This document shows, in pieces, positions 1 through 13,501 of a DNA stretch of 13,501 bases. The number at the start of each line of letters is the position of its first letter. Position 1 is the first letter of the stretch. A program made the position numbers and the translations under genes. Below the pieces are notes generated by a model. That model saw only the letters and a list, made by a program, of their open reading frames with translations, ran no database searches and was not told where the DNA came from. The stretch is from a virus (Duplodnaviria > Heunggongvirae > Uroviricota > Caudoviricetes): the IMG/VR virus record IMGVR_UViG_2734482784_000005, positions 1 through 13,501 of that record; one strand, 5' to 3'.

Positions 1-393
1 TCATATTACTGGATAATCATCATCATCCTTCCCTATCCGATTGATAACGAATGTCACTACCCCGACAACTGTAACATCATCCAGGGCCTCACCTTCCAAC
101 GCTTCACCGTCTCGTGTAATAAATGCCCGGCCCATAATTTTTGCAAAATCAGTGCCGCCGCCGTATTGAATTAAAACGGTATCTCCTTGCTTTGGTTTTA
201 CGAAGCAATCCACTACGGCATAGCCGGTTTCTGTTTGTACTATCCGAGTATTGGGGCCGGTACCGCAGAGTGAATCAACGGTCAGACGCCGTTCAACATA
301 GTCAGCAGCTGGCGACGGAAATCCCACGTTATAGCCCTCCGTTTGGGTTGTATAACTGGAACGTGAGCTCATCGCCTTCCTGCGTTGAGACAT
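1..393 (-). CDS. UmuD-like (peptidase S24 family) protein, 130 aa, divergent
   Basis: Complete ORF (ATG at 393..391, stop at 3..1). Contains GFPSPAADYVE at residues 24-34, matching the cleavage-site region of UmuD/MucA/RumA as I recall it, and a C-terminal GDTVLI...FAKI...VVGVV pattern resembling the S24 fold. I could not find a canonical GDSM serine motif by eye. Sits 9 nt downstream of the 403..560 ORF, which follows a LexA box. Confidence 0.5.
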   Translation of the reverse strand: MSQRRKAMSSRSSYTTQTEGYNVGFPSPAADYVERRLTVDSLCGTGPNTRIVQTETGYAVVDCFVKPKQGDTVLIQYGGGTDFAKIMGRAFITRDGEALEGEALDDVTVVGVVTFVINRIGKDDDDYPVI

Positions 394-402
394 CCCGGAA
401 TG

Positions 403-560
403 TCAGTGCTCTATCCACTGGTTAGCCTGGCGCGGTGACCATATCCAGTTAACTTTTGCGAGTTCCCGGATAAAACCGGACGTTGTCACGGTGCGACGGC
501 CATTAGGCTCAATGACAATTGCCTGACGCCAGGCTATTTCGATATCTGAGTTTCGCGGCA
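403..560 (-). CDS. small hypothetical protein, 52 aa, first gene of a LexA-box-controlled operon
   Basis: ATG at 560..558 preceded by GGAGGTGAAGTT (strong Shine-Dalgarno, about 7-nt spacing). The longer track ORF (to 606) would place the start codon inside the LexA box, so the internal ATG is preferred. No family recognised. Confidence 0.45.
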
Positions 561-579
561 TAACTTCACCTCCCGAAAA

Positions 580-599
580 TACTGTTTTTATATACAGTA
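580..599 (-). promoter_or_regulatory. LexA operator (SOS box)
   Basis: Plus strand reads TACTGTTTTTATATACAGTA; minus strand reads TACTGTATATAAAAACAGTA. This is a perfect CTGT-N8-ACAG palindrome fitting the enterobacterial LexA consensus, 19 nt upstream of the ATG at 560. Confidence 0.7.
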
Positions 600-1103
600 G
601 ATTCATTAAGAGATCTGATCAATACAGGTTCCAGCTATCAATCAGGAACACTGAGGAGGAAACCAGTCACCTTTTAGCCTCTGATATTGGTTTCACTTAG
701 TGATTATGTTGTCTATGTGCCAACTATGAACTATCTTTTCTCAAAACCTGCTACTGCAAAATGGATATAAGATGTCACAGACGGACTTGCTGATTGTTGT
801 TTTTACTCTGGGCATTTTAGCCTTTGGCTATTCCATATGGTTCATTTCGAACAGAATACTTTGCTCTATATTTCATAGACTTACAAAGAATATATGAATT
901 GGGATGGTATAGACCCAAATTCATGGTCATTGCCCCTCGACGTCGGAAGGTACTTACAGATCATCTTCGCTCTTAACCTATCACATCGGCACCTACTCCA
1001 TGATGTAACAGCTCAGACCAGAAATATCTGGAAGCTTTAGGCATATTCTTGGAAGATAGACGAGCGCAAAGACGCACACAGCAATGATGTTATGTAGTAT
1101 TTT

Positions 1104-1135
1104 CCCCTTGAGTGTGCCTGCTCAAGGGGGTTTTT
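1104..1135 (+). terminator. rho-independent terminator (plus-strand orientation)
   Basis: Stem CCCCTTGAG (1104-1112), loop TGTGCCTG, stem CTCAAGGGG (1121-1129), then G plus TTTTT (1131-1135). On the minus strand the hairpin is followed by A-rich sequence, so the plus orientation is favoured. Confidence 0.55.
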
Positions 1136-1172
1136 ATCGCCGTATTGTACTGGCAAATATTTGTAAATAGTC

Positions 1173-1201
1173 TTCACCCCCACGCCTGTCACATCGGCCA
1201 C
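1173..1201. repeat. direct repeat copy A (displaced invertase 3-prime end)
   Basis: TTCACCCCCACGCCTGTCACATCGGCCAC matches 1751-1779 at 25 of 29 positions. On the minus strand it encodes VADVTGVGVKTIYKYLP, a second copy of the invertase C-terminal HTH. Confidence 0.7.
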
Positions 1202-1219
1202 ACGCGACTGGACAGGCGG

Positions 1220-1642
1220 TTAGTCCGGTATGTTTCTCGCGCTACTACTGCTTACGTTAACGTCTGGTAATGATCTAGCGGCGCGACGTAAAGCGGCGTT
1301 GAAAGCAATTATAGTGACCGGCCGGCATTGGTACTTCACACGGTTAGAATGGCTCTGAAATAAAAAAACATCTTCTGGATAGCGTTCTCTTCTACGAGCA
1401 ATGATCCCCTCCACTGGAGGGGTTGATTTAACACGTAGCTCCTTCAGGTGACCCTGTTTTCGTATCAGTATCAAGTCACCATCAATATCATCATATCGAA
1501 TACTCAGCAGCCTTCCAGCGCTTAAACCCGTGTGAAAAATTAACGCCCACAAGTCAGCCCATGTATCTGAGATGGAAACAAGATTGCTGTTAATAGTTAA
1601 AAATTGCTCAAAACTTATTGTTTTCTTACCGTTCACGAACAA
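1220..1642 (-). pseudogene. tyrosine recombinase-like fragment (FimB/phage-integrase-like), no ATG start
   Basis: 140-codon ORF with no methionine codon anywhere (the track start is TTG). The TGLSAGRLLSIRYDDIDGDLILI segment resembles the box I region of tyrosine recombinases, but the downstream His/Arg/Tyr catalytic region is missing. Confidence 0.4.
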
Positions 1643-1719
1643 ACCAAACTGTTTTCAAAGCTGAATGAATTGATTAAGCCAAACGTAACATATCAGGAAA
1701 AGTAGTGAAATCTTTGCCT

Positions 1720-1932
1720 TCAAGTCGCCGGGAGGTACTTGTAGATTGTTTTCACGTCCACGCCTGTCACATCAGCCACCTGCTGCCGGGTAGCGCCGTT
1801 CTCCAGCATTCTGCGGCACCGCTCCACCACTTCTTCAGTCATTATCCGGCGGCGGCCGCCGACTCTCTCCTGCTCCATCGCTGCGGACCGACTCGGATGC
1901 ATTCGGCAAATTCTAGGCCGTGATTTTTCCAA
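1720..1932 (-). pseudogene. Hin/Gin/Pin-family serine DNA invertase remnant (C-terminal HTH only)
   Basis: GGRRRIMTEEVVERCRRMLENGATRQQVADVTGVDVKTIYKYLPAT aligns well with the C-terminal DNA-binding domain of Hin/Pin as I recall it (GGRPRAIT...GHPRQQLA...STLYRYFPA). The N-terminal catalytic domain is absent and the ORF begins with a non-ATG codon. Confidence 0.55.
1751..1779. repeat. direct repeat copy B (inside invertase remnant)
   Basis: TTCACGTCCACGCCTGTCACATCAGCCAC; partner of 1173-1201. Confidence 0.7.
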
Positions 1933-2713
1933 TCCTCTCCATCAGATATGCCAGGATGACATCCAGTGTGCTGGTCCCATATGCATATTTGCCGGGGAAA
2001 ACCAAACATTCTGACAAAACGGATGTTAACGGAGACACTGAACCATTGCCTGCTCCGCCAATACTCATTTTTTGAGACGGGCTATACGCTGGGATTGTAT
2101 AGCCCGTCACTTGTCGGCTGGTCACTGCAGACTGATCTGACCGCTGGTATGCAATTGCATAGGATCCAGCAGCCTTGTTAGAGCACATAACTACAGCGCA
2201 GAATAAAGATTGCCCTATATTGTTAGGAGTAAATGCCAGATCGGCCTCGATCCCTCCATTCAGAAAAATCGGGAATGAACCTGCTGACGTTGTACGAATG
2301 CCGACGCCATGAGGTGTGCTTTCCTGGGTTGCGATAACCGCTCTGTCCTGTGGCGTAGCCGGAAGCGCCCCACCTGGCAGCTGATAGATGAATGCAAAAG
2401 TATTGATGTTTGCGTCCATAACCACCGCCGTATCACCAGCCATGCCGGATGCACCGGAGAAATTAAGCCCCTGCAAAACAGAACCATTCAGCTTTGTGGA
2501 TGGCTCGAGGGTCTCCAGTGACTTGAAAAGTCCGCCATCTAATCGGTTAGAGATAGCTACTACTTTTGCACCAGACCCCATTTTTAGAAACTCTGTCTTC
2601 ACTGGTGTCCATACTGATGGGGATAGTTCTGAGATCGCTTTCTCTGCCGCTGTTTGTGAGTACACAGGGAGTAAGGGGTTATTCAGTCCAGTTAGTGTGT
2701 AAATCAGTCTCAT
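1913..2713 (-). CDS. hypothetical protein, 266 aa, cotranscribed downstream of the tail-fibre-like esterase gene
   Basis: ATG at 2713 preceded by GAGGA; starts 10 nt after the stop of the 687-aa ORF. No family recognised; Gly/Ser/Thr-rich. Confidence 0.55.
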   Translation of the reverse strand: MRLIYTLTGLNNPLLPVYSQTAAEKAISELSPSVWTPVKTEFLKMGSGAKVVAISNRLDGGLFKSLETLEPSTKLNGSVLQGLNFSGASGMAGDTAVVMDANINTFAFIYQLPGGALPATPQDRAVIATQESTPHGVGIRTTSAGSFPIFLNGGIEADLAFTPNNIGQSLFCAVVMCSNKAAGSYAIAYQRSDQSAVTSRQVTGYTIPAYSPSQKMSIGGAGNGSVSPLTSVLSECLVFPGKYAYGTSTLDVILAYLMERIGKITA

Positions 2714-2722
2714 TTTTTATCC

Positions 2723-4786
2723 TCAGAAAACGTTAATACGAAAAGCGGGGAGCCAGTCGTAAAGAGTCACGGATGTGTCATACACCCATATGATTCCAGC
2801 GGAAGATCGAACACACCCTCTTGCACCAAGAGTCCGCCCGGAAGGTTTTACAGATGCGCCGCTCTGAAGTGGGTTTTCTGCTGTCGCATAGGAAACGCGC
2901 CCAAAACGTCCAGAGGGGGCGGTCGCCAGGTTAATCAGCACGCCCTTGCCGTCCGAGCTGATCGCGATGCTCGATATAGCAGGTGGAGCACCAGTCTCAT
3001 CCGTGTAGCTAAAGCCGTAATTGGCCAGACCGGAGGTGTTGATCGTAGTCGTGTCCAGCACCAGGTTCGTATACGCTGGGACATTGATTTGTATCTGCGT
3101 GGGTGAGTTCCACACGAAACTGGTCGGAACCATCCCTGACCAGCCGCTCGTAAACCACTCCTGGAGAAGCGCTCTCGCCACAGCTGCTCCGCGCCGGTTC
3201 TGGCCCGCACACGTCAAGTGCAGACCGTCTGAAATAAAATCGTACTGGTACAAACTATTGACCAGCCTGAATTGCTCTTTTCCGTGCAATCGCGTCGACG
3301 CCAGTCGCGCGTACTGGCCTGTAAATGCACCATGCCCGTCATTGACATACCCCAGCTGGGTAATGGCGATAATCGGCGGTTCGTTTTGACCCGTTCTTGC
3401 GATGATGTCGCTGGTGATTTGTCTCTGGTACTGCCTCATCCGTGATTCATACATTCCTTCTCGTAATCCTGACCAGTCCTCGTCGGACTCTCCCTGCATC
3501 CAGTCAACGCAGAGAACAATCGGCAGCCAGCCGCGTGCTTTACAGGCCGTTACGCAGTCTTCGATTGAATCGAGCAGATACTGATATACCTGGTTACCCC
3601 GTTTCTGGTACTCGTAAGCCTGACCAGACTGCGCACATACGATTGATAGCGTGCGCGGCATGATTCCGGTAGCTGCAGCCATATCGCGAATGAAGGTGTT
3701 CGCGAGGCCGCTTGCGGCCGTTTCTTTATCTGTCCCACTTACTGCCTCAACCAGTGGCACCAGAGTAGTGCTGCGTGTCCCTGTACGCCTAACCCCGCCG
3801 CTGAGCATGAAAGCGTTATCAGGATATATCGGCGTTGCTGCGACAATGGTTTGATCGGCGTCAGGACAATATCCTCGAGCGTTGGATTGCCCAGCAGTCA
3901 CAAAGATAAAACATACAGGCACTGTCTCTGAGTAGGGGTACACAGTAGACCCTGACAAATGAAGTCCATACTCAGGGAGCTGGTTGGCATCATCGTCGCC
4001 ACCACCACCGCCATTTCCGTTATTAACAGCTACCAGGCCACCGTCTGAGTAAATCCAGTGCTTCCCACCAACCGTATAAGCTTCAACGATCTGGTTTGTG
4101 GTTGAATCAACCGTCATCCGCCACACTTTTTCACCGCCAATAAACTGCGGTATAGAACCCTCCCGGCCCAGCGCATAGAGTTCGGATTCTTGTTGGGTTA
4201 AAAGTTCGTAATATTTTCCGTCAGGACCGATTTGAATTAATCTGCCGCTTGTATTTAAAAATGGAGCCACGCGGGAAGTCTCCGGATCATATGCTGCCAG
4301 GGTCACGCTGTCTGGCGATACCTGGTATGCGTAGTCGTCACGAACCATCCGCCGTCCGGTTGGCTGCAGCGTTCCAGCGAGGTTGATATACTCATCGGCC
4401 AGAGAGCTTCCGTCCTGACTGCGGACATAGGTTGTTGAACCTGCCGGAATATTCGCAATATCCGCCTGCGCCGCCGCCAGCGTCATGTACTGCCGGCTGA
4501 GAGGGATCAGGTTTTGGCGGGCTTCATCAATAACAGCGTCGGTAGCAGCTGCCATTTTTTTAGTAGCCCCAATTATCGTATCCTGGGCGTTACCAAAACG
4601 ATCTATAAAAGTATCGCTTTCGCTGTTCAGGAAATCATCGTACGCCAGGGCGTTATCATTCAGATCCTTCATGCTATTTGAAGGTCTTGGATTGCCGGTA
4701 TTATATCTTTTGTCCATACCTGTTCCTGTCTTCATCTTTTCAATGAAGCAATTAAGATTGACGCCCCGCCCCTTCAGGGCTAACAT
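2723..4786 (-). CDS. phage tail-fibre/tailspike-like protein with central SGNH/SASA-type carbohydrate esterase domain
   Basis: Long ORF. AGQSNARGY (GQSN motif typical of the SASA/sialate-O-acetylesterase SGNH family) and a downstream DGLHL (DxxH) motif. A long N-terminal region and a C-terminal beta-rich region fit a receptor-binding tail protein. Start is uncertain: ATGs at 4786, 4735, 4717 and 4672 are all possible; the 4717 ATG has AGGAACAGGT upstream. Confidence 0.6.
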   Translation of the reverse strand: MLALKGRGVNLNCFIEKMKTGTGMDKRYNTGNPRPSNSMKDLNDNALAYDDFLNSESDTFIDRFGNAQDTIIGATKKMAAATDAVIDEARQNLIPLSRQYMTLAAAQADIANIPAGSTTYVRSQDGSSLADEYINLAGTLQPTGRRMVRDDYAYQVSPDSVTLAAYDPETSRVAPFLNTSGRLIQIGPDGKYYELLTQQESELYALGREGSIPQFIGGEKVWRMTVDSTTNQIVEAYTVGGKHWIYSDGGLVAVNNGNGGGGGDDDANQLPEYGLHLSGSTVYPYSETVPVCFIFVTAGQSNARGYCPDADQTIVAATPIYPDNAFMLSGGVRRTGTRSTTLVPLVEAVSGTDKETAASGLANTFIRDMAAATGIMPRTLSIVCAQSGQAYEYQKRGNQVYQYLLDSIEDCVTACKARGWLPIVLCVDWMQGESDEDWSGLREGMYESRMRQYQRQITSDIIARTGQNEPPIIAITQLGYVNDGHGAFTGQYARLASTRLHGKEQFRLVNSLYQYDFISDGLHLTCAGQNRRGAAVARALLQEWFTSGWSGMVPTSFVWNSPTQIQINVPAYTNLVLDTTTINTSGLANYGFSYTDETGAPPAISSIAISSDGKGVLINLATAPSGRFGRVSYATAENPLQSGASVKPSGRTLGARGCVRSSAGIIWVYDTSVTLYDWLPAFRINVF
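4758..4786 (+). promoter_or_regulatory. putative sigma-70 promoter for the HTH/acyltransferase operon
   Basis: TTGACG (4758-4763), 17-bp spacer, TAACAT (4781-4786); upstream of the 4819 start. Confidence 0.35.
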
Positions 4787-4818
4787 CGCCTTACGTGTTT
4801 AAACGGTTAAATAAGAGA

Positions 4819-5082
4819 ATGATTTTAATAAATAAATACACCCCTCCAACGCAGGAAGATTTAGCCAGACTGAAATCCGCACTAAATTACTCCGGAAACC
4901 AAATGGCAGGGCTCGCAGGTGTAGCCAGCGATAGCCAATGGCGGAAATACACTGGCGGAGAGAGCCCCAGGGTAATGTCAAGACACATACTGTTTTATAT
5001 TGCAGCTCAGCTTGTTCTGTCTGATGAGCAACTTAACAATGTAATAAATAAAATGCGCGATATTGGCGCGGAGATAAAATAA
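4819..5082 (+). CDS. small XRE-like HTH protein, 87 aa
   Basis: ATG at 4819 (the track start at 4795 is GTG). The segment NQMAGLAGVASDSQWRKYTGGE resembles an HTH_XRE recognition region. Its stop overlaps the acyltransferase start (TAATG). Confidence 0.5.
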   Translation: MILINKYTPPTQEDLARLKSALNYSGNQMAGLAGVASDSQWRKYTGGESPRVMSRHILFYIAAQLVLSDEQLNNVINKMRDIGAEIK

Positions 5083-6173
5083 TGCTTGGCCTAATAAGGT
5101 TTTTTTTGGCATCGTGCGTCATTGCTTTTCACTTAACGGCTCGCATACCTGCACTTGGCAACTTTGCAGTGAATTGCTTCTATGTTATTAGTGGTTTTTT
5201 AATAACATACATTTTGCATGAAACATACAAGTTCAACTTCTCTATGTTTTGGAAAAATAGAATACTGAGGTTATTCCCGGCATATATATTTTTTCTCGTC
5301 ATGGGCTTTCTTATTATAAAATTAATTCCATCCGCAAAGGAATTCCACTCAAACTGGACAGGCAATTTCTTACCTGGAGATTTATTAGGAAACCTCTTAA
5401 TCTTCCCCTGGGCTTTCCTTTCTGATAATGCTGTAGCAAATCCATTCGGTGCCTTTTCATCCATTTATCACTTTGCTATTGATGGTAATAGATTCAGAAT
5501 AGTCACATCATCATGGTCAGTGGGTGTTGAGATAACATGTTATTTTTTATTGTGGCTTTTCATAGCCCGAAATAAATTTACAGCCATTACGTCGATTCTG
5601 CTTTCACTGCTTTATCATGCTTACGTATATGTAGTACACCATTCTTTTGATATGGCGTATTTCCCATTCCTTGCTGCAACACTTCCTTTTAGCATGGGTT
5701 CTCTGGGTTATTTTGCCCATAGAAAGTTCAAAGCTATGTATCTTTCTCCACACAAAGCTTTTTTAATAACATTTATTTGCATCGGGATTTTTATTACCAA
5801 TTGGCATTTATATACAATTAATCCATTAGGTCAGTACAACATAATACTTTACTACACCAATAATGTAATAGCATTGTTTACAACCCTGGTATTATTAAAA
5901 ATAAAGACAAACATACATCTTGAGAAAATACTCAAGTGGTTTGGTGACCTGGCCTATCCAATTTTTCTTTGTCAATATTTTGGTGGATTTCTAGCATGGC
6001 TTGCTATTGGTGGTGAAAATCGTGGCTTATCCATCTTTTTATTAGGCTACCCAATATCAATTGCACTTGGGATCGTTTGTGTAATATTAATAGACAAGCC
6101 ACTAATTAAAATTAGAGCAAAAATAAGGGCGGACGCTCAAAGCAAAAATAATCAGGAAAACTCTTCAAGGTAA
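5082..6173 (+). CDS. acyltransferase family 3 integral membrane protein (O-antigen/polysaccharide O-acetyltransferase-like, OafA/Oac type)
   Basis: 363 aa, multiple hydrophobic helices, NCFYVISGFLITY (the FxxISGF motif of the acyltransferase-3 family), RBS GGAGA 8 nt upstream. Markedly AT-rich relative to flanking genes. Confidence 0.8.
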   Translation: MLGLIRFFLASCVIAFHLTARIPALGNFAVNCFYVISGFLITYILHETYKFNFSMFWKNRILRLFPAYIFFLVMGFLIIKLIPSAKEFHSNWTGNFLPGDLLGNLLIFPWAFLSDNAVANPFGAFSSIYHFAIDGNRFRIVTSSWSVGVEITCYFLLWLFIARNKFTAITSILLSLLYHAYVYVVHHSFDMAYFPFLAATLPFSMGSLGYFAHRKFKAMYLSPHKAFLITFICIGIFITNWHLYTINPLGQYNIILYYTNNVIALFTTLVLLKIKTNIHLEKILKWFGDLAYPIFLCQYFGGFLAWLAIGGENRGLSIFLLGYPISIALGIVCVILIDKPLIKIRAKIRADAQSKNNQENSSR

Positions 6174-6994
6174 ACTAAACCATTCGCTCCTTTTCCTGAT
6201 GAATAGTTACCATTCCCCCCGGCACCACCTGAGCCGGGGAAACCGCCATCATCGCCAGAACTACCGAAGTGGCCATTGCCACCCGTTGATGAAAATGCAG
6301 CTCCTCCAGCCCCGCCAATAAAAGCATCAGAACCATAATACAGACCACCTTGAGATATTCCGCCAGTAATATTTAAAATGTTCCCGCCACTTCCGATACC
6401 TCCAGCAGGAACTGTAGCCCCGCCACCACTCCCTCCAGTAGCTGAGATTAAACTCCCGAACCTTGTATCACCACCATTCCCGCCTTTAGACGAGACACCA
6501 GCAGCAACAGCACTGCCACCAGTACCTATCGTCACAGATATAGTTTCGTTATCAGAAATATTAAATAACCCTTCCGAAAATCCACCAGCACAACCTCCAG
6601 ATGCGCCCACACTAACTGGAGCATTCTGGCCACCTCCCCCCGCTCCCCAAACTTTCACCCGCACTCTTTTCGTCCCTTTAGTTGGAGTGTAAGTCCCTGA
6701 CTTAGTAAAGGTGACAATATTAAGCAGGCGACCGCCACCAATCGCTTTAAGAACCTGTGAATCATCATCAGGATCAAGCTCAAGCCCCGCGCCCTCAACA
6801 ACGTTTATGTGAACCTCGGCCAGATCTGAGGATGGCCGGGGAACGGCCCGCAGTTGCTCAATAATCGCCGCTCTCGCTGCCTGCTGGAACTTGCGCCCTG
6901 TCTCGCTTACCAGATGCCTGCCTTTCAGCGGTCCCTTGCTCGGGGCGCGCCAGTAACTATTTACGCTCGGTGGAAATGGTAAAGTCAGTTTCAT
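6152..6994 (-). CDS. RusA-like (Holliday junction resolvase family) N-terminal domain fused to a glycine-rich C-terminal region, 280 aa
   Basis: N-terminus MKLTLPFPPSVNSYWR matches the RusA signature (LPWPPSNNRYYR in E. coli RusA). The C-terminal ~170 aa are Gly-rich low complexity. Strong RBS AAGGGGG upstream of ATG 6994, and only 9 nt after the dam-like stop. Confidence 0.6.
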   Translation of the reverse strand: MKLTLPFPPSVNSYWRAPSKGPLKGRHLVSETGRKFQQAARAAIIEQLRAVPRPSSDLAEVHINVVEGAGLELDPDDDSQVLKAIGGGRLLNIVTFTKSGTYTPTKGTKRVRVKVWGAGGGGQNAPVSVGASGGCAGGFSEGLFNISDNETISVTIGTGGSAVAAGVSSKGGNGGDTRFGSLISATGGSGGGATVPAGGIGSGGNILNITGGISQGGLYYGSDAFIGGAGGAAFSSTGGNGHFGSSGDDGGFPGSGGAGGNGNYSSGKGANGLVYLEEFS

Positions 6995-7003
6995 TTAGCC
7001 CCC

Positions 7004-7843
7004 TTAAAGGATCGCTACAACGTCTTTTGCGACTTCCCGCGTACTGCTTTTGCAGGAGATCGAACGGCGCGCGTTGATGAATTGCAGGTTAAAACCATGC
7101 TCCCGGTACAGGTCGAGAACCTTCGGTGCAGATGAGTTAGAAATCACTACCCGAGCCCCACGGTGAAAGGCTGATACGCATTGCTTCGCCAGGTCTACCT
7201 GGTTCTCCCAGTTAAAACCACCAGCGGCGTAGGCGGTGAATCCGGTTGTTCCCGGCATCGGTTCGTAAGGCGGATCGCAGTAAACCACATCCCCTTTCCC
7301 GGCCAGGCTGATTGTCCGGCGGTAATCAGCCGTCATGAATACGCAGTTATGCGCCATAGCCGCGAAGGCTTTCATCTCATCCATCGGGTAATACGGAGCC
7401 TTGTAGCCTCCCCAGCCCACATTGAACTTGTTCGCCTGGTTGTAGCGCATCAGACCATTGAAGCAATGCCGGTTGAGATACAGGAATGCAGCTGCGCGTT
7501 CAGTAGCATCCAGCGTCTGAGAGTTGAACTCGGAACGGATCAGCTCATAGCGCTCTGGTGACCGCATGTGCTCGAACATCCAGCGGGCCTTCAATTCCAC
7601 TTCATCCGGCACGACCGCTAACATCTGATACAGATTAATCAGGTCCGGGTTAACGTCCGCCAGCAGGTAATCTGCGTGCTTTTCGCTGTTCAGGAATACC
7701 GACCCACCACCAACGAATGGCTCTACACGAACTGCACCGGCCCTGCTCCACCAGGAACTGGCCGCGCTACAAGTTGCGACCTGCGGTATTGTGTTGATAA
7801 ACTGTTCATGCGTTAGTAATCTCCACTGATAACGGCACGCCAC
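7004..7843 (-). CDS. DNA adenine methyltransferase, Dam/D12 class
   Basis: EPFVGGGSVFLN (motif I, FxGxG) near the N-terminus and VVYCDPPY (motif IV, DPPY) near the C-terminus, in Dam order. There is no in-frame ATG upstream of motif I, so the start is either GTG at 7843 or the gene is damaged. Confidence 0.75.
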   Translation of the reverse strand: MACRYQWRLLTHEQFINTIPQVATCSAASSWWSRAGAVRVEPFVGGGSVFLNSEKHADYLLADVNPDLINLYQMLAVVPDEVELKARWMFEHMRSPERYELIRSEFNSQTLDATERAAAFLYLNRHCFNGLMRYNQANKFNVGWGGYKAPYYPMDEMKAFAAMAHNCVFMTADYRRTISLAGKGDVVYCDPPYEPMPGTTGFTAYAAGGFNWENQVDLAKQCVSAFHRGARVVISNSSAPKVLDLYREHGFNLQFINARRSISCKSSTREVAKDVVAIL

Positions 7844-7870
7844 GACGCCAGGAGCTGCAACTCGCTGGCG

Positions 7871-8323
7871 TCACTTCTTTTTGCGTGAAAAAAGCGTGAT
7901 GATTGCGGCAATCTCTTCTTCACGAGCTGCCAGGTGACGGCGGTGATGCACCATGATTTCTTCGGCCTCGTGCCTTTCAATAACGCCATCTTCAAGCGCC
8001 TGTTCGATAATCTGATCAACCTGCCCCCTGGCGGCAGAGGTACGCATTGCCCGGCTAAACAAGTCCACGCGGTCCAGTTCTTCCAGGTGCGGAACATCCA
8101 CCAGCAGAGCACCACGACGGCGGGCAAAATATTCAGCCAGGTGAGATGTATTCGAGATGTCCTCCATCGCTTCCAGTTCGCTGACTTCGAAGAAACGACA
8201 GCCGTTTTTCTCGTAAAGGTTGTTGTTAAACTGCGTCACCGTCATTCCCAGTGCGCCAGCCATTGCTTCGCGCCCACCTGGATATGCTTTGCACATAGAT
8301 TTCACGACTTCTTTGAGGTTCAT
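7871..8323 (-). CDS. CII-like/YdaT-like regulatory protein, 150 aa
   Basis: ATG at 8323 preceded by AAGGAG. Lies directly downstream of the Cro-like gene, the position YdaT occupies in Rac-type prophages. Family assignment is by architecture and loose similarity. Confidence 0.6.
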   Translation of the reverse strand: MNLKEVVKSMCKAYPGGREAMAGALGMTVTQFNNNLYEKNGCRFFEVSELEAMEDISNTSHLAEYFARRRGALLVDVPHLEELDRVDLFSRAMRTSAARGQVDQIIEQALEDGVIERHEAEEIMVHHRRHLAAREEEIAAIITLFSRKKK

Positions 8324-8351
8324 ACCTACTCCTTTCAAACTCGGGTGGTAG

Positions 8352-8615
8352 TTACAAATTTGATGCAGTGACATTAAGCTTTCGCATTGCTGCACCTCTT
8401 AAATAGGCCCAGTCAATGTCAGGACGAAGCTCTTCGCAGGTGACAGCACCACCAGTAGCTTTCTCAATCGCAGGACATCGTTCCGCAGGTATTTGCCTAA
8501 TGCCCGTTGTCCATTGATTCACTGTTGGTGATGAGATGCCTAGATTCCTTGACAAAGCGGCTTGTCCCCCAACAATGCGGCAGGCTTCACTGATTGCTTC
8601 AAGGCTACTTCTCAT
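8352..8615 (-). CDS. Cro/YdaS-like HTH regulator, 87 aa
   Basis: ATG at 8615 with AGGA upstream. The segment LSRNLGISSPTVNQWTTGIRQIPAERCPAIEKATGG is typical of YdaS/Cro-type HTH proteins. Divergent from the cI-like gene across an operator-containing intergenic region. Confidence 0.65.
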   Translation of the reverse strand: MRSSLEAISEACRIVGGQAALSRNLGISSPTVNQWTTGIRQIPAERCPAIEKATGGAVTCEELRPDIDWAYLRGAAMRKLNVTASNL

Positions 8616-8649
8616 AAACGGATTCCTATGATTTCCACACAAGCAGATA

Positions 8650-8724
8650 TTAGGCTAAGCCTAATAAACAATCAATAGGAATTGCCTAAGCTATAGGTTA
8701 TGAGGATTATTAGGCAATGCTTAG
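8650..8724. promoter_or_regulatory. OR-like operator region between divergent cI-like and cro-like genes
   Basis: Perfect palindrome TTAGGC-TAA-GCCTAA at 8650-8664, a related half-site GCCTAAGC near 8684-8691, and TTAGGC-AAT-GCTTAG at 8710-8724. Confidence 0.5.
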
Positions 8725-9193
8725 TGGTAAAGAATTGGGCCGAGCGATCGAGCAGGCCATAGACAAGAAGCTTTCAATAGGTTCTGCCAAGAGTAAGGCG
8801 GAAATCGCACGTCATTTCAAAATAAAACCCCCATCAATCCATGACTGGATCAATAAAGGCTCCATATCGAAAGAGAAGCTACCAGAGCTTTGGAACTACT
8901 TTTCTGATGTTGTGGGCCCCGAGCACTGGGGACTAAAGGGATACCCGCTAACTGATACATGTGAGCCCGCAACAGATCCCATAGTTAAAAATGGTTCTAT
9001 TGACGAGCTCTATAATAAGGCTTCGAGAGAAAAAAAGGCTATCATTGATTTTGTCCTCTTAGAGCAAGGACAGCGTATACCTGGCTGGGTAGATAGCGAT
9101 GCTAAAGCATATTTAGACTCATTAGAGATGAAGATAAGGAGATGGGCAGAGCAGGAGGAAGATGGAAAAAAACAAACGAAAGCCAGAGCTTAA
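8717..9193 (+). CDS. cI-like/RacR-like prophage repressor, 158 aa, HTH with no S24 peptidase domain
   Basis: N-terminal HTH (KAEIARHFKIKPPSIHDWINKGSI), RBS GAGGA 10 nt upstream, divergent to the cro-like gene. Size and gene order match the RacR-YdaS-YdaT arrangement. Confidence 0.65.
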   Translation: MLSGKELGRAIEQAIDKKLSIGSAKSKAEIARHFKIKPPSIHDWINKGSISKEKLPELWNYFSDVVGPEHWGLKGYPLTDTCEPATDPIVKNGSIDELYNKASREKKAIIDFVLLEQGQRIPGWVDSDAKAYLDSLEMKIRRWAEQEEDGKKQTKARA

Positions 9194-9363
9194 GCTTATA
9201 TGGTCTAACGGACAATATCTCTAAGCTCCATACATGTTAAAAGCTCTGAGATTGATTCGCTTGCATAACTCAATCCCTGTGGGGGATTGGCTTGTATGAA
9301 GCCTATCCGGGATTGTGACTTGCTTTGATTTAACAGCAGGTTTTCACTTTGCATGGAGGATGC

Positions 9364-10518
9364 ATGGAAAACTTCAAAGTACGTCTTAAAAATCACATTG
9401 AACATGTTAAAAATGTTAGAGAACACTGCACAACGGAAGAGACAACCAAGCAGGCTTTGATACTTCCTTTTTTGGACATCCTAGGCTTTAACGCATATGA
9501 TCCGCAAAAAGTCAAAGCTGAATATGGTGCGGACTTCCCTGGTGTGAAAGTGGGTGAGCGTGTAGATTATGCTCTATTCTGCCAAGGTGTTCCCGTTATG
9601 TTTATTGAGGCCAAAGGTTGTAAAGAAAAAATGGACAACCATTGTCCTCAATTATCTAGGTATTTTAATTCTACTCCTGAGGTGACAATATCAGCAATTA
9701 CTAATGGAATTGAATGGCGCTTTTTTACGGATCTCAATGAAAAAAATATAATGGATTCAACGCCATTTTTACGAATCATGATGGATGACATTAAAGATTC
9801 TGATGCTGAGCAATTATTTAGATTCCGCCATGACAAATTCAAACCAGAGGCCCTAAGAACCCTTGCAGAAGAGAGTGTTTATATTTCTGCATTTGTTAAA
9901 GTCGTGAGTACAAGCCTTCGGGAAGTAGATCATGAATTTGTTAGATATGTTGCAGGACGAGCAAATATTGGTCGTCAATTAAATCAAAGATTTATAGAAA
10001 CAATAACTCCATTGGTGAGGCAGGCCGTAGAGAGGTCAGTAAGTGAAATGGTTGTTTCTGGTCTTTCATCAAGAACATCTATTCCTGAATTAGAATCCCC
10101 TGCTGATGTAACTGAAAATAATGTAATTGATGAGCGCGCAGATATTGTCGATGCAGAGAACCCCAACATAGTAACAACCTATAATGAAAGAATTTTATTT
10201 GAAAAAATCTGTTCTATTATAGGCCCTGCATACGAACTTCAAGCCAAAGATACAGAGTCCTATTACTCTATTCTTTTCCAAGGAAAAACAAACCGCTGGC
10301 TGGTTCGCTATTATGACAAGAAGAATCGCTCAAACATACAGTTACCAATTGATATCAATGAAATAACCGGTAATGAAATTAAAAGAGCCGGACTTGAACA
10401 TGATAACAATCGTATTTTCATTGAACATCCCGAGGATGTATTAAGGATTTCAGGTTTAATCCTTGATTCTTTACAATATGTACAGAATGATGAGAATTTC
10501 AGAAAGCGTCGTCCATAA
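9364..10518 (+). CDS. standalone HsdR-N-type PD-(D/E)xK nuclease domain protein, 384 aa, with uncharacterised C-terminal domain
   Basis: ATG at 9364 preceded by GGAGGA. N-terminal ~130 aa follow the type I restriction HsdR N-terminal nuclease pattern: TKQALILPFLDILGF ... RVDYALF ... VMFIEAKG ... QLSRYF ... ITNGIEWRFF (D...EAK...Q..Y..TNG..W). AT-rich. Located between the cI-like gene and the pL/OL-like site. Confidence 0.7.
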   Translation: MENFKVRLKNHIEHVKNVREHCTTEETTKQALILPFLDILGFNAYDPQKVKAEYGADFPGVKVGERVDYALFCQGVPVMFIEAKGCKEKMDNHCPQLSRYFNSTPEVTISAITNGIEWRFFTDLNEKNIMDSTPFLRIMMDDIKDSDAEQLFRFRHDKFKPEALRTLAEESVYISAFVKVVSTSLREVDHEFVRYVAGRANIGRQLNQRFIETITPLVRQAVERSVSEMVVSGLSSRTSIPELESPADVTENNVIDERADIVDAENPNIVTTYNERILFEKICSIIGPAYELQAKDTESYYSILFQGKTNRWLVRYYDKKNRSNIQLPIDINEITGNEIKRAGLEHDNNRIFIEHPEDVLRISGLILDSLQYVQNDENFRKRRP

Positions 10519-10547
10519 TCATAAAAACACTAGCTTTATTTCACACA

Positions 10548-10575
10548 AATCCCGCTTATGCGGGATTTTTTTTGA
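10548..10575 (+). terminator. rho-independent terminator downstream of the nuclease gene
   Basis: Stem AAATCCCGC (10548-10555), loop TTAT, stem GCGGGATTT (10560-10568), followed by a T-run (10569-10573). Confidence 0.7.
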
Positions 10576-10588
10576 CCGCCGACCAACA

Positions 10589-10631
10589 TTAGGCTAAGCC
10601 TATTGACATGACATTAGGCATAACCTAACAT
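10589..10631 (+). promoter_or_regulatory. pL-like promoter with two OL-like operators
   Basis: TTAGGC-TAA-GCCTAT at 10589-10603 and TTAGGC-ATA-ACCTAA at 10614-10628, the same palindrome family as the cI/cro intergenic region. TTGACA (10604-10609), 16-bp spacer, TAACAT (10626-10631). Confidence 0.5.
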
Positions 10632-10927
10632 CAAGTGAGTCTGATGGACTATGTCATCTTGGCGGCACCAGTTTCCCCATTGTTTCTGGTTCGCCCTTTT
10701 ACAAAAGACATCAGAGCACCACCGAGTGACGTGCCCTAACACAATCCGCCCGAGCGGATTTGCGGCCGCAGGTGCTCTTCTGTGTTGTGTGGAGAACTAA
10801 CGTACCGCCATTGCAGTGGCGGTCCCCCATCAGCAAGAAATTTTAACCAGCTATTCACCCATTCTCATGGGTTGGGTTGCTGCACCCTAAATTTACGCGT
10901 TGCAGAGCGTCAGATGGAGAACAAAAG

Positions 10928-11227
10928 ATGGCTAAGACAGCAAAACAACTGATTAAACAGGCGTACGAAATAGCCAAAACTATGCCACCAGAACAGGCAG
11001 CAATCATCAAGGAACTGGCTACCGTCCTCGATGTTTCGAATGTAGCTCTGCGCCAGACGCGCACCGAACGTGACGCCCTTCTTGCAGAGGTCAAATCATG
11101 GGCGAAAGAGTGTGATCGCCTGACCGAGCGACACACCAAGAATCGCACAAATATGCATGTTCTAGAGGCTATGCGCGTTTTGAAGGCAATTTGCCCCACC
11201 AGCTTCCGTAACGTGGAGGCTCTCTGA
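10928..11227 (+). CDS. hypothetical protein, 99 aa
   Basis: ATG at 10928 with GGAGA upstream. Stop overlaps the start of the ParB-like gene (TGATG). No family recognised. Confidence 0.5.
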   Translation: MAKTAKQLIKQAYEIAKTMPPEQAAIIKELATVLDVSNVALRQTRTERDALLAEVKSWAKECDRLTERHTKNRTNMHVLEAMRVLKAICPTSFRNVEAL

Positions 11228-12012
11228 TGGCTAAAGACTCAAAGCTGGTATATGGCGCGAGTGGCAAAACGAACGTTTTAGCGTTTGAACCTGAAAAACT
11301 GCACCTGGTTACCGACAAAACGCACCCGCTTTACGATGAGCGTATCCACCTGCCTATCAGCGAGGCAATGGTGCTGAACATCATGGACCAGGGCGTTCTT
11401 GAGCCGATTATCGTCTGGAAAGACCCGGAAACAGGGCTGTCTTGTGTGGTTGATGGTCGCCAGCGTGTGCGCCATACACTGGAAGCCAATAAGCGTCTGT
11501 CAAAATTGGGCAAAGAACCGTTACTGGTTCCGGGAGTCCCTAAACGTGGCTCTGCCATTCGCATGGCGCAGGCGATGGTAAGTGCTAACGAAATCCGCCA
11601 GGCAGATACGCCGCTAGGCCGAGCAAAGAAAATGGCTGATGCGCTGGAGCGCGGGCACGATGAGGATGATTTAGCGCTGATGTTTGGCGTGAGTGTCCAG
11701 ACCGTACGCGCAACTCTGTCACTGCTGGATGCCACCCAAGCTGTTCGCGATGCAGTGGAGTCCGGAACGGTCACTGTTACCCAGGCGCGTCAGTTGGCAT
11801 CGCTTAAACCCGAAGAGCAACGGGAGAAGGTCAAGCAGATCGAGACAGCGACCGCCGGCACCACGGGCCATGAAAAAGCTCGGCGTCAGCGTCAGATCCT
11901 CGGTGATGCAAAGCCGCGCCTGAAAACCCGCAAAGAAATTACAAAAGCACTCGAAGATGCCAGTGGCGAATATGCCGAGGCTCTGCGCTGGGTGCTTGGG
12001 GAGGCGCAATGA
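11227..12012 (+). CDS. ParB-like nuclease domain protein (ParB/Srx fold with C-terminal HTH), 261 aa
   Basis: VVDGRQRVRH resembles the ParB N-terminal domain motif; LALMFGVSVQTVRATLSLL is HTH-like. Translationally coupled to the upstream ORF. Confidence 0.65.
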   Translation: MAKDSKLVYGASGKTNVLAFEPEKLHLVTDKTHPLYDERIHLPISEAMVLNIMDQGVLEPIIVWKDPETGLSCVVDGRQRVRHTLEANKRLSKLGKEPLLVPGVPKRGSAIRMAQAMVSANEIRQADTPLGRAKKMADALERGHDEDDLALMFGVSVQTVRATLSLLDATQAVRDAVESGTVTVTQARQLASLKPEEQREKVKQIETATAGTTGHEKARRQRQILGDAKPRLKTRKEITKALEDASGEYAEALRWVLGEAQ

Positions 12013-12143
12013 ATTTTGAACCTGAGAATTACAGCAAATACACCCTGCGTCGGCTCGCCGCCCTGTTAGATGTGATCTGCTGGGTGCTGATTGCCGTAGT
12101 AACCGTTGGTATCTGCATGTTTATTGAATGGTGGACAGCATGA
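12009..12143 (+). CDS. small hydrophobic protein, 44 aa (MNFEPENYSKYTLRRLAALLDVICWVLIAVVTVGICMFIEWWTA)
   Basis: Below the ORF-track size cut-off; translated by hand. ATG 12009 overlaps the ParB-like stop (ATGA), with GGGGAGG 5 nt upstream. One predicted transmembrane helix. Confidence 0.35.
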   Translation: MNFEPENYSKYTLRRLAALLDVICWVLIAVVTVGICMFIEWWTA

Positions 12144-12298
12144 GCAACGTAACCAAACCAACCAGCAAGGGGAAATTTGATGGGGCAGTTGATTACCTCT
12201 GCTCCGATGAGGCTCGTTTTCTGGTTATGCGGGGCGACTATAGCGAAGCAGATATTATCCAAGCGTCTGTATCCCAAGATGTGATTGATGCTGAATGA
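12140..12298 (+). CDS. small protein, 52 aa, in the excisionase position directly upstream of int (MSNVTKPTSKGKFDGAVDYLCSDEARFLVMRGDYSEADIIQASVSQDVIDAE)
   Basis: Translated by hand. ATG overlaps the preceding stop (ATGA), GGTGGA 5 nt upstream, and the 3-prime end overlaps the integrase start. No excisionase motif recognised; the assignment is positional only. Confidence 0.35.
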   Translation: MSNVTKPTSKGKFDGAVDYLCSDEARFLVMRGDYSEADIIQASVSQDVIDAE

Positions 12299-13262
12299 GT
12301 GGATGCCGAAGGGTGTGTTTTTCCGCCCTTCCGGTTACTACTGGAAGCCAGGAGGTACTACCGAGAATCTAGCCCCAGCAAACGCTTCTAAAGCGGAGGT
12401 TTGGTTAGCTTACGAGAAAGTCGTTGAAGGTCGAAAAAAACTACTCACCTTTCAACAATTGTGGAAAAAATTTTTAAATAGTGCTGACTATGCAGACCTT
12501 GCCCCCAGGACACAAAAAGATTACCTGGCACATGAAAAATACTTGTTAGCGGTTTTCGGCGATGCAGAAGCAAAGGCCATTAAACCAGAACACGTCCGAC
12601 GCTACATGGATGCACGTGGTAAAAGAAGCCGTGTTCAGGCTAATCACGAGCATAGTTCAATGTCTCGTGTATACCGCTGGGGTTATCAGCGTGGTTATGT
12701 ACCAGGTAATCCGTGTGTTGGTGTCGATAAGTTTCCTAAACCCCAGCGCGACCGCTACATAACTGATGAAGAGTACATAGCTATCTTCACTCATGCGACA
12801 CCTGCAGTTAAAGCCGCGATGGAAATTGCGTATCTTTGCGCTGCAAGGGTATCTGATGTTCTTAAAATGAACTGGAATCAGATTCTTGATAAAGGAATTT
12901 TCATACAGCAAGGTAAAACTGGTATTAAACAGATCAAAGCCTGGACTGAGCGTCTTAGTGCGGCTGTGGATATTTGCAGGGAATGGGGACAGGATGGCCC
13001 TGTTATCAGGACAATGTATGGTGAGCGTTATTCATACAAGGGATTTAATGAAGCATGGAGAAAAGCGAGAAACGCGGCTTCTGAAGAACTTGGTAGGCCA
13101 CTTGATTGCACCTTCCATGATCTAAAGGCTAAAGGGATCTCAGACTATGAAGGATCTGGCAGGGATAAGCAAAAATTCAGTGGTCATAAGACAGAATCAC
13201 AGGTACTTGTTTACGACAGGAAAGTTAAAATCAGCCCCACGTTGAACAAGAAAATGAGATGA
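12288..13262 (+). CDS. int: lambda-family tyrosine integrase
   Basis: 324 aa. N-terminal GVFFRPSGYYW resembles the lambda Int arm-binding region (NLYIRNNGYY). C-terminal HDLKAKG and HKTESQVLVYDR fit the His and Tyr catalytic motifs. Adjacent to the tRNA gene. Start could be ATG 12288 or ATG 12303. Confidence 0.85.
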   Translation: MLNEWMPKGVFFRPSGYYWKPGGTTENLAPANASKAEVWLAYEKVVEGRKKLLTFQQLWKKFLNSADYADLAPRTQKDYLAHEKYLLAVFGDAEAKAIKPEHVRRYMDARGKRSRVQANHEHSSMSRVYRWGYQRGYVPGNPCVGVDKFPKPQRDRYITDEEYIAIFTHATPAVKAAMEIAYLCAARVSDVLKMNWNQILDKGIFIQQGKTGIKQIKAWTERLSAAVDICREWGQDGPVIRTMYGERYSYKGFNEAWRKARNAASEELGRPLDCTFHDLKAKGISDYEGSGRDKQKFSGHKTESQVLVYDRKVKISPTLNKKMR

Positions 13263-13269
13263 TTCTTTG

Positions 13270-13301
13270 GCGTCGGAGCATGCTTCGGCGCTAGAATTTT
13301 T
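13270..13301 (+). terminator. putative terminator after int
   Basis: Hairpin GCGTCGGAGC-ATG-CTTCGGCGC (with G-U pairs) followed by TAGAATTTTT. Confidence 0.4.
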
Positions 13302-13374
13302 CTCAGTGGATTTTCTCAATTTTTCTCATCGGGATGCAGGTCACTGAAAGGGAATGCTGTAAGTGTTTGAATAG

Positions 13375-13464
13375 TGGCGGAGAGAGGGGGATTTGAACCC
13401 CCGGTAGAGTTGCCCCTACTCCGGTTTTCGAGACCGGTCCGTTCAGCCGCTCCGGCATCTCTCC
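13375..13464 (-). tRNA. serU: tRNA-Ser (anticodon CGA), 90 nt including CCA
   Basis: Minus strand reads GGAGAGATGCCGGAGCGGCTGAACGGACCGGTCTCGAAAACCGGAGTAGGGGCAACTCTACCGGGGGTTCAAATCCCCCTCTCTCCGCCA: 7-bp acceptor stem, CGA in the anticodon loop, long variable arm typical of tRNA-Ser, TTCAAAT T-loop. Confidence 0.9.
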
Positions 13465-13501
13465 GTTCAGATGGTTGCCATGATGCCAGGAAATTTGGCA
13501 T

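Follow-up and report, generated by a model that had tools for sequence, protein, structure and literature searches.

Whether a single repressor governs both early sides of a prophage is the question raised by a 13,501-nucleotide (nt) stretch of Caudoviricetes DNA (IMG/VR record IMGVR_UViG_2734482784_000005, positions 1 to 13,501; hereafter, the window), in which the palindrome TTAGGC-N3-GCCTAA recurs near the start of a gene for a repressor of 158 amino acids (aa) and again at a distal promoter beyond it. A sequence-only reading of the window had counted five related sites and proposed that this one repressor controls the cro-side and the int-side early operons. Herein, the sites were scored, compared with related loci and set against the published work on Rac, a prophage in Escherichia coli K-12. 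They are very probably the operators of a RacR-type, lambda-like immunity switch carried by a prophage remnant.

The window was scanned with the pattern TTAGGCNNNGCCTAA, and mismatches were counted. All five sites were placed by the scan (Table 1), and the one previously noted near 8684-8691 proved to be the right half of O2. One further match with up to two mismatches stood isolated at 5080. The repeats might be chance matches or a generic host motif, for which the short half-site, and nothing else, can be adduced. In 2000 simulated windows generated by a first-order Markov model, the mean number of sites with up to two mismatches was 0.55; no simulation reached six or placed two sites 20-40 bp from each other. 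Four 50-kb samples (200 kb; L018-L021) of the chromosome of E. coli PCN061, a strain carrying the element, served as the host background and contained three sites with two mismatches and none with zero or one, so the motif does not occur there at a density similar to that in the window. Moreover, a 19-nt weight matrix trained solely on the sites of other loci gave the five sites 18.8-24.9 bits, whereas the next position in the window reached 9.6 bits and no position in the 200 kb of PCN061 reached 12 bits. Taken with the conservation across genera described below, these results leave chance or a generic host motif a negligible probability.

The repressor itself scored 254.3 bits against an NCBIfam equivalog profile with a cut-off of 200, residues 1-148 aligning with profile positions 1-149 of 150, and by this match it is identified as RacR. 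It is 56% identical overall to K-12 RacR, the N-terminal domain being far better conserved, and it shares 100% identity with the Klebsiella phage KpF5 repressor. In K-12, three variant TTAGGC/GCCTAA repeats were noted in the racR-ydaS intergenic region by Krishnamurthi et al. in 2017, and RacR binding was reported from a gel shift with three complexes and from chromatin immunoprecipitation with quantitative PCR (PMC5700373). A DNase I footprint published in Nucleic Acids Research in 2022 defined the monomer site ATTAGGC and the operators O1-O3, (T/A)TAGGC-n3-GCCTA(T/A), with RacR footprints on these repeats at ≤50 nM and O3 covering the racR ATG; three racR promoters were mapped, and in vitro transcription revealed that RacR blocks PydaS only if added ahead of RNA polymerase (PMC9638921). 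The PydaS/PydaST promoter was mapped as TTGACA-18-TAATAT (PMC9638921, PMC11879457). The window sites at 8650, 8675 and 8710 match both this consensus and the O3-over-ATG layout (PMC9638921). Both the lambda analogy and the right-hand operators are known from earlier publications, and the element belongs to a known RacR immunity type. Of the candidate immunity specificity seen earlier in the motif, the RacR-type specificity stands, but it is common to many genera and not peculiar to this element.

Operators and promoter hexamers are interlocked in the same way on both sides. The int-side early promoter, which resembles lambda PL, was detected by a promoter scan, whereas the cro-side promoter, resembling lambda PR and PydaST, was read from the sequence, since it matches 8 of the 12 consensus positions and falls under the threshold of the scan. 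The layout is TTAGGCTAAGCCTAT / TGACA / TGACA / TTAGGCATAACCTAA / CAT for PL on the plus strand and TTAGGCAATTCCTAT / TGATT / GTTTA / TTAGGCTTAGCCTAA / TAT for PR on the minus strand. Both share one design, in which the final base of the upstream operator is the first T of the -35 hexamer, and the downstream operator, 25 bp on, fills the spacer and runs into the -10 hexamer, covering its first three bases. On the cro side, O2 adjoins the -35 with base 8675 common to both, and O1 lies in the spacer with a 3-bp overlap with the -10; on the int side, the last T of OL-A is the first base of the -35 TTGACA, and OL-B lies in the spacer, likewise overlapping the -10 by 3 bp. The TTGACA/TAACAT promoter that the last two sites had been said to bracket is present, though 'bracket' is slightly loose for one site sharing a base of the -35 and another overlapping the -10. 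The third right-hand site, O3, contains the racR ATG in all 15 aligned loci and in the Pectobacterium (L022) and Herbaspirillum (L024) loci, and would be an autoregulatory site. A candidate racR -10, GATTAT, was located by positional alignment with PracR3 of K-12; with this -10, racR transcription would begin at the A of the ATG and the mRNA would be leaderless. In K-12, the -10 of PracR3 is GAGAAT, and a leaderless transcript was mapped by primer extension (PMC9638921).

The same sites, or at least the left pair, could instead be chiefly targets of the Cro-like YdaS, which would lower early transcription in lytic growth. In lambda, the operators are common to Cro and CI. In K-12, the racR-ydaS intergenic region is also bound by YdaS, a reported competitor of RacR (PMC11014345), it autorepresses (PMC9638921), and a YdaS-like gene accompanies racR in the window, in the Pectobacterium locus and in K-12 Rac. 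However, the RacR footprints fall exactly on the repeats at ≤50 nM, and the motif follows the RacR N-terminal domain in L024 and in L013-L015. Since dual recognition would supplement, not replace, the RacR explanation, we regard YdaS as the chief ligand as rather unlikely.

It is the left-hand pair that extends the published picture. K-12 Rac has such a pair, ATTAGGCATAGCCTAT-TGACA-ATCAATTAGGCATTACCTATAGT, ~100 bp past the racR stop and upstream of ydaG. Thirteen racR-bearing genomic loci were drawn from one-genome-per-species contigs, and the pair was present in 11 of them, from Klebsiella to Achromobacter and including Mixta, E. ruysiae, Morganella, Proteus and Burkholderia. It also occurs in the phages KpF5 and vB_EcoS-683R6, and in the loci L022 and L024, whose repressors are of the S24 type. 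In the alignment, the operators and hexamers are kept and the flanks are unrelated, with the junction GCCTAT/TGAC in 13/13 aligned sequences. The association also holds in reverse, as 107 of the 119 IMG/VR viral stretches picked by TTAGGCNNNGCCTATTGAC alone encode the RacR N-terminal domain; in several of the exceptions, the motif is near the end of the fetched stretch or the stretch is very short. The distance from the racR stop to the pair spans 70-3420 bp across loci, and this interval is therefore a variable cargo slot like that of lambda rexAB. No published description of a RacR left operator or PL downstream of racR was found in the accessible Rac literature, a scope that leaves the older sbcA/recE papers outside. 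The left-hand pair can be considered a conserved extension of the published right-hand set, to which RacR is predicted to bind.

A third, weaker left site, TTAGGTTACGCTTAA, is possible in Rac-type loci and starts 19 bp upstream of OL-A. Sites of this type are located at 10674-10688 on the plus strand in K-12 (L002) and at 6555 and 8555 in L005 and L017, respectively, with two mismatches in E. ruysiae and phage 683R6 and three in K-12 by alignment reading. The window has no such third site.

When RacR is lowered in K-12, the transcripts of ydaG, ydaF, kilR, ydaE, racC and recET rise 40- to 70-fold or more (PMC6765115; bioRxiv 10.64898/2026.09.06.749655), which fits direct control at a promoter downstream of racR. 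The proposal of one repressor for both sides is thus well supported by the identity of the protein as RacR, by binding of the same motif by the K-12 orthologue, by a left pair of the same motif and geometry conserved beside racR, and by this derepression of the left arm.

Considering that the element is without replication, lysis and structural genes, the left pair might still be an inert relic, conserved by descent and regulating nothing important. The element was found in 10/5426 complete E. coli genomes, and in all 10 carriers the racR-cargo-operator region is broken or partly replaced by an insertion sequence (IS1, IS3 or IS5/ISKpn26; 14190-14887 in the PCN061 locus, L001), 7 of them keeping just 54% of the 2.4-kb query. 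Yet in the window the racR open reading frame (ORF), the five operators and both promoters are intact; they are the same, or almost the same, in KpF5 and in at least 15 IMG/VR viral contigs, where the racR-cargo-operator block recurs without change; and the equivalent K-12 remnant still requires RacR for viability (PMC5700373). A purely inert pair is accordingly a very doubtful explanation.

Several points weigh against the RacR switch as proposed. The published RacR biochemistry concerns the K-12 orthologue at its right-hand operators, and the K-12 left-arm derepression may be partly indirect, through YdaS or YdaT. The cro-side -35, TTGATT, is weak. Two loci, from Klebsiella sp. R390 (L003) and a Nitrosomonas metagenome genome (L015), have the right-hand sites and no left pair within 6 kb in relaxed half-site scans, and the occurrence of the pair in 103/105 of the IMG/VR loci analysed concerns a set chosen by the motif itself and is not independent. 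Finally, the regulated operons are truncated in the remnant, and the circuit may be only partly functional: for the cro-side and int-side early operons of the sequence-only reading, control by RacR is upheld, whereas the operons are vestigial in an element of ~13 kb.

In the RacR switch that we favour, RacR dimers would use the helix-turn-helix N-terminal domain to recognise the 15-bp palindrome TTAGGC-N3-GCCTAA, and two dimers bound cooperatively per lytic promoter would exclude RNA polymerase. O2 and O1 would control the minus-strand promoter of the cro-like ydaS and cII-like ymfL genes, OL-A and OL-B would control the plus-strand promoter toward the ParB-like gene and the integrase gene, and O3 would serve autoregulation of the probably leaderless racR mRNA. 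The racR gene and its nuclease-like cargo would form the lysogenic transcript, terminating just before the left operators, as in lambda cI-rexAB. Derepression might come about by dilution or depletion of the repressor, by Cro-like competition or by an antirepressor; RacR is without an S24 peptidase, and RecA-stimulated self-cleavage would therefore not be the route.

That the repressor has no S24 domain, as the sequence-only reading had it, was confirmed in two ways. Pfam gave no match to Peptidase_S24 (PF00717) in the 158-aa protein, and an AlphaFold2 model built from 42 homologues (predicted local distance difference test score of 78) was all-helical, with no strands. The model comprises an N-terminal helix-turn-helix domain of five helices (residues 1-75; putative recognition helix, 38-47), a disordered linker (79-92) and a three-helix C-terminal domain. 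A Foldseek search of the model against the PDB returned no significant match and no LexA- or UmuD-type peptidase entry; its matches, to Xre, HipB and lambda cI N-terminal folds, had E-values of ~1, and they fit a helix-turn-helix and prove nothing. A sequence search of RacR against the PDB returned no match.

The missing peptidase is a genuine difference in architecture, since S24 is present in homologues that have the same N-terminal domain. In the Achromobacter homologues (L013 and L014; 362-365 aa), PF00717 was found with an E-value of 6.7e-15. The Pectobacterium homologue P0091 (L022; 235 aa) has an N-terminal domain 87% identical to that of RacR and an S24 domain with GDSM and VKRL motifs, and Herbaspirillum P0105 (L024) and several others likewise combine the RacR N-terminal domain with Peptidase_S24 (PF00717). 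There are at least three lengths and types of S24 fusion among Achromobacter, Pectobacterium and Herbaspirillum. The S24-type loci retain the left-hand pair and all three right-hand operators, O3 again enclosing the ATG. As judged from these sequences, the DNA-binding domain and operator layout are constant, and the C-terminal domain is exchanged, together with the probable route of induction. Operator and recognition helix are both nearly invariant across the family, which made their covariation unusable.

A broader reading, which we put forward tentatively and hold to be possible rather than probable, is that the RacR N-terminal domain and the five-operator layout form a portable module joined to interchangeable C-terminal domains, a series of natural swaps. 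The S24 types occur in Pectobacterium, Herbaspirillum and Achromobacter, and small helical oligomerisation domains in Escherichia, Klebsiella, Proteus, Morganella and Burkholderia. K-12 RacR was reported in 2023 to be an octamer by size exclusion, whose N-terminal domain is CI-like and whose C-terminal oligomerisation domain is unrelated, and the octamer was attributed to the four intergenic repeats (PMC11014345). Under the module proposal, this octamer would loop the left and right operators, two dimers on each, in contrast to the published proposal of four dimers lined up across the intergenic region, and the non-cleavable forms would rely on an antirepressor. The 25-bp centre spacing of both pairs and the K-12 octamer are compatible with cooperative binding and looping. 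If the module proposal is true, nature has swapped domains on one unchanged DNA circuit to give SOS-cleavable repressors and repressors that are not cleaved.

An antirepressor has been considered for RacR before, as Lemire et al. (2011) listed it among the small repressors likely to be antirepressor-controlled (PMC3121763), and PaaR2, the small repressor of CP-933P, was reported to be unresponsive to mitomycin C (PMC8630535). At the left end of the window, a perfect LexA box lies over the -10 of a minus-strand promoter ahead of a small ORF of 52 aa and a UmuD'-like gene (Table 1). The UmuD'-like protein keeps a GFPSPAADYVE motif, apparently without the catalytic GDSM serine motif, and the E. 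coli PCN061 annotation gives it as a frameshifted 'DNA polymerase V'. Induction might be coupled to the SOS response if the 52-aa protein were a LexA-controlled antirepressor like Gifsy GfoA/GftA or 186 Tum: the LexA box is perfect and sits over the -10, the product is a small protein of family phrog_3893, and RacR is without S24 and is listed by Lemire et al. as a possible target of antirepressors (PMC3121763). However, many unrelated phages carry this cassette of LexA box, 52-aa ORF and UmuD-like gene, which several lambdoid phages (including HK225, phiES15 and Kp4882-3) have at their ends, and none was found in KpF5, which has a 100% identical RacR. Because it is so widespread and was not found beside an identical RacR, the cassette looks like an independent SOS-regulated accessory gene set; the 52-aa product is a weak antirepressor candidate, and SOS-coupled induction through it is improbable.

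Table 1. Coordinates of the operators, promoters and genes discussed for the 13,501-nt window
Feature	Position	Strand	Details
O1	8650-8664		TTAGGCTAAGCCTAA; 0 mismatches; 24.9 bits; perfect palindrome
O2	8675-8689		ATAGGAATTGCCTAA; 2 mismatches; 18.8 bits; centre-to-centre 25 bp from O1
O3	8710-8724		TTAGGCAATGCTTAG; 2 mismatches; 21.7 bits; 3-bp spacer is the racR ATG (8717)
OL-A	10589-10603		TTAGGCTAAGCCTAT; 1 mismatch; 24.5 bits
OL-B	10614-10628		TTAGGCATAACCTAA; 1 mismatch; 21.1 bits; starts 25 bp past the OL-A start
Cro-side promoter (like lambda PR/PydaST)	8647-8675	minus	-35 TTGATT 8675-8670; 17-bp spacer; -10 TAATAT 8652-8647; read from the sequence
Int-side early promoter (like lambda PL)	10603-10631	plus	TTGACA 10603-10608; 17 bp; TAACAT 10626-10631; promoter scan, 10/12 consensus
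Candidate racR promoter -10	8705-8710	plus	GATTAT; positional alignment with K-12 PracR3
racR, 158-aa repressor	8717-9193	plus	NCBIfam equivalog NF049929
ydaS-like cro gene, 87 aa	8352-8615	minus	PF15943, E-value 2.7e-30, P22_Cro; 56% identical to K-12 YdaS
YmfL/CII-like regulator, 150 aa	7871-8323	minus	PF06892; NF041471, 205 bits
Cargo gene, 384-389 aa	9364-10518	plus	HSDR_N-like nuclease domain; PF04313, E-value 2.4e-14; phrog_4225 'endonuclease'
Intrinsic terminator	10547-10568	plus	9-bp stem, then T run
Genes downstream of the PL-like promoter	10928-13262	plus	99-aa protein, ParB-like 261-aa protein, two small ORFs, tyrosine integrase (12285-13262)
LexA box	582-597		CTGTTTTTATATACAG; perfect CTGT-N8-ACAG; over -10 of minus-strand TTGATC-17-TACTGT promoter
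52-aa ORF	561-403	minus	Shine-Dalgarno and ATG after the LexA-boxed promoter (region 403-606); phrog_3893
UmuD'-like protein, 130 aa	1-393	minus	phrog_3469
tRNA-Ser(CGA) gene	13375-13464

As for the rest of the element, the window is a ~13-kb prophage remnant at a tRNA-Ser(CGA) gene. On the cro side, the YmfL/CII-like gene follows the cro-like gene and is presumably co-transcribed with it. That side is devoid of replication, Q, lysis and virion genes and encodes a Dam-like methylase, a fusion of RusA and tail-fibre fragments, an acyltransferase and an esterase-like protein. The fused ORF (280 aa, 6152-6994, minus strand) has a RusA-like N-terminal piece (phrog_34, residues 1-63) and a tail-fibre/tail-fibre-assembly C-terminal part with a glycine-rich domain, and it marks a large internal deletion of the ancestral replication-to-tail genes.

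Between racR and the left operators, the nuclease-like cargo gene occupies the lambda rexAB position and, expressed as part of the lysogenic transcript, may have an uncharacterised role in exclusion or defence; the slot holds different cargo, 0-3.4 kb, in other loci of the RacR type. PADLOC found no defence-system match for the 389-aa cargo, ParB-like and 99-aa proteins, and its sole match was the Dam-like methylase as an orphan methyltransferase. The intrinsic terminator lies beyond the cargo gene, and a comparable hairpin and T run is located 129 bp ahead of the left operators in the Pectobacterium locus. On the PL side, the gene order is identical in E. coli PCN061 and phage KpF5. The PL-like leader (10655-10700) contains a hairpin followed by CUUUUA, similar to the 3' part of KilS (b4833), a small RNA located upstream of kilR in K-12 Rac; this element, with a folding z-score of only -1.6, may be an early terminator or part of a small RNA. 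Rfam searches of the whole window at gathering thresholds and of 10540-10960 at E-value ≤1 gave tRNA-Ser and weak terminator-like matches, and nothing for the PL leader.

To the known immunity type, the analysis adds a complete operator and promoter map for this element, a conserved two-site left operator and PL (predicted in K-12 too), the common design of PR and PL, and C-terminal domain exchange on an unchanged circuit. For K-12, a second RacR target is indicated, namely the promoter between racR and ydaG, and control there would directly explain why a fall in RacR derepresses kilR, recET and the left-arm genes near them. From Klebsiella to Achromobacter the operator consensus is common, and co-resident RacR-type prophages are therefore predicted to cross-regulate. 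Sister repressors that have the same DNA-binding domain and operators, with or without S24, provide a natural system for studying the exchange of prophage induction pathways.

Compared with the K-12 Rac prophage, the window has the same repressor family (equivalog), operator consensus, O3 on the ATG, divergent cro-like and cII-like genes, PR promoter-operator geometry and, downstream of racR, TTGACA promoter with a two-site left operator. The repressors, by contrast, are 56% identical with divergent C-terminal domains; the window has three intergenic operators and 67 bp from O1 to the ATG, whereas K-12 has four and 94 bp; and the cII-like protein is of the YmfL type instead of YdaT. The racR-to-left-operator interval holds 1.4 kb of nuclease-like cargo and a terminator in the window and ~100 bp in K-12, the left operon carries the ParB-like gene and integrase instead of kilR-recET, and integration is at tRNA-Ser instead of ttcA.

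The PaaR2/YdaS/YdaT system of CP-933P in E. coli O157:H7 is similar in its small peptidase-free repressor, leaderless mRNA, divergent ydaS-ydaT, cargo co-transcribed with the repressor, and repeats also at the downstream PL region (PMC8630535). It differs in repressor family, in its 18-bp palindromic operators with the half-site consensus GTTTAGTAA, and in its cargo, a ParE2 toxin-antitoxin pair. The antirepressor systems Gifsy GfoR/GfoA and GtgR/GftA, 186 CI/Tum and N15 CB/AntC share a repressor of ~150 aa without a cleavage domain, and the window too has a LexA-boxed small ORF elsewhere in the element; in this case, however, the LexA cassette is not linked to racR in related phages.

Compared with that of lambda, the RacR operator is 15 bp and of unrelated sequence, the left sites number two against three in lambda, and the C-terminal domain is a small helical bundle without the S24 Ser/Lys dyad, so RecA-stimulated cleavage is not expected. 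Like lambda, the window has a divergent repressor and cro, a three-part right operator, operator pairs 24-25 bp apart over the lytic promoters, and the same operator repeated at another early promoter, located distally on the side of the repressor gene. Accessory genes would share the transcript of the repressor and stop short of the left operator, the repressor mRNA is leaderless (mapped in K-12 and inferred in the window), and the repressor is octameric, as determined for K-12 RacR by size exclusion (PMC11014345).

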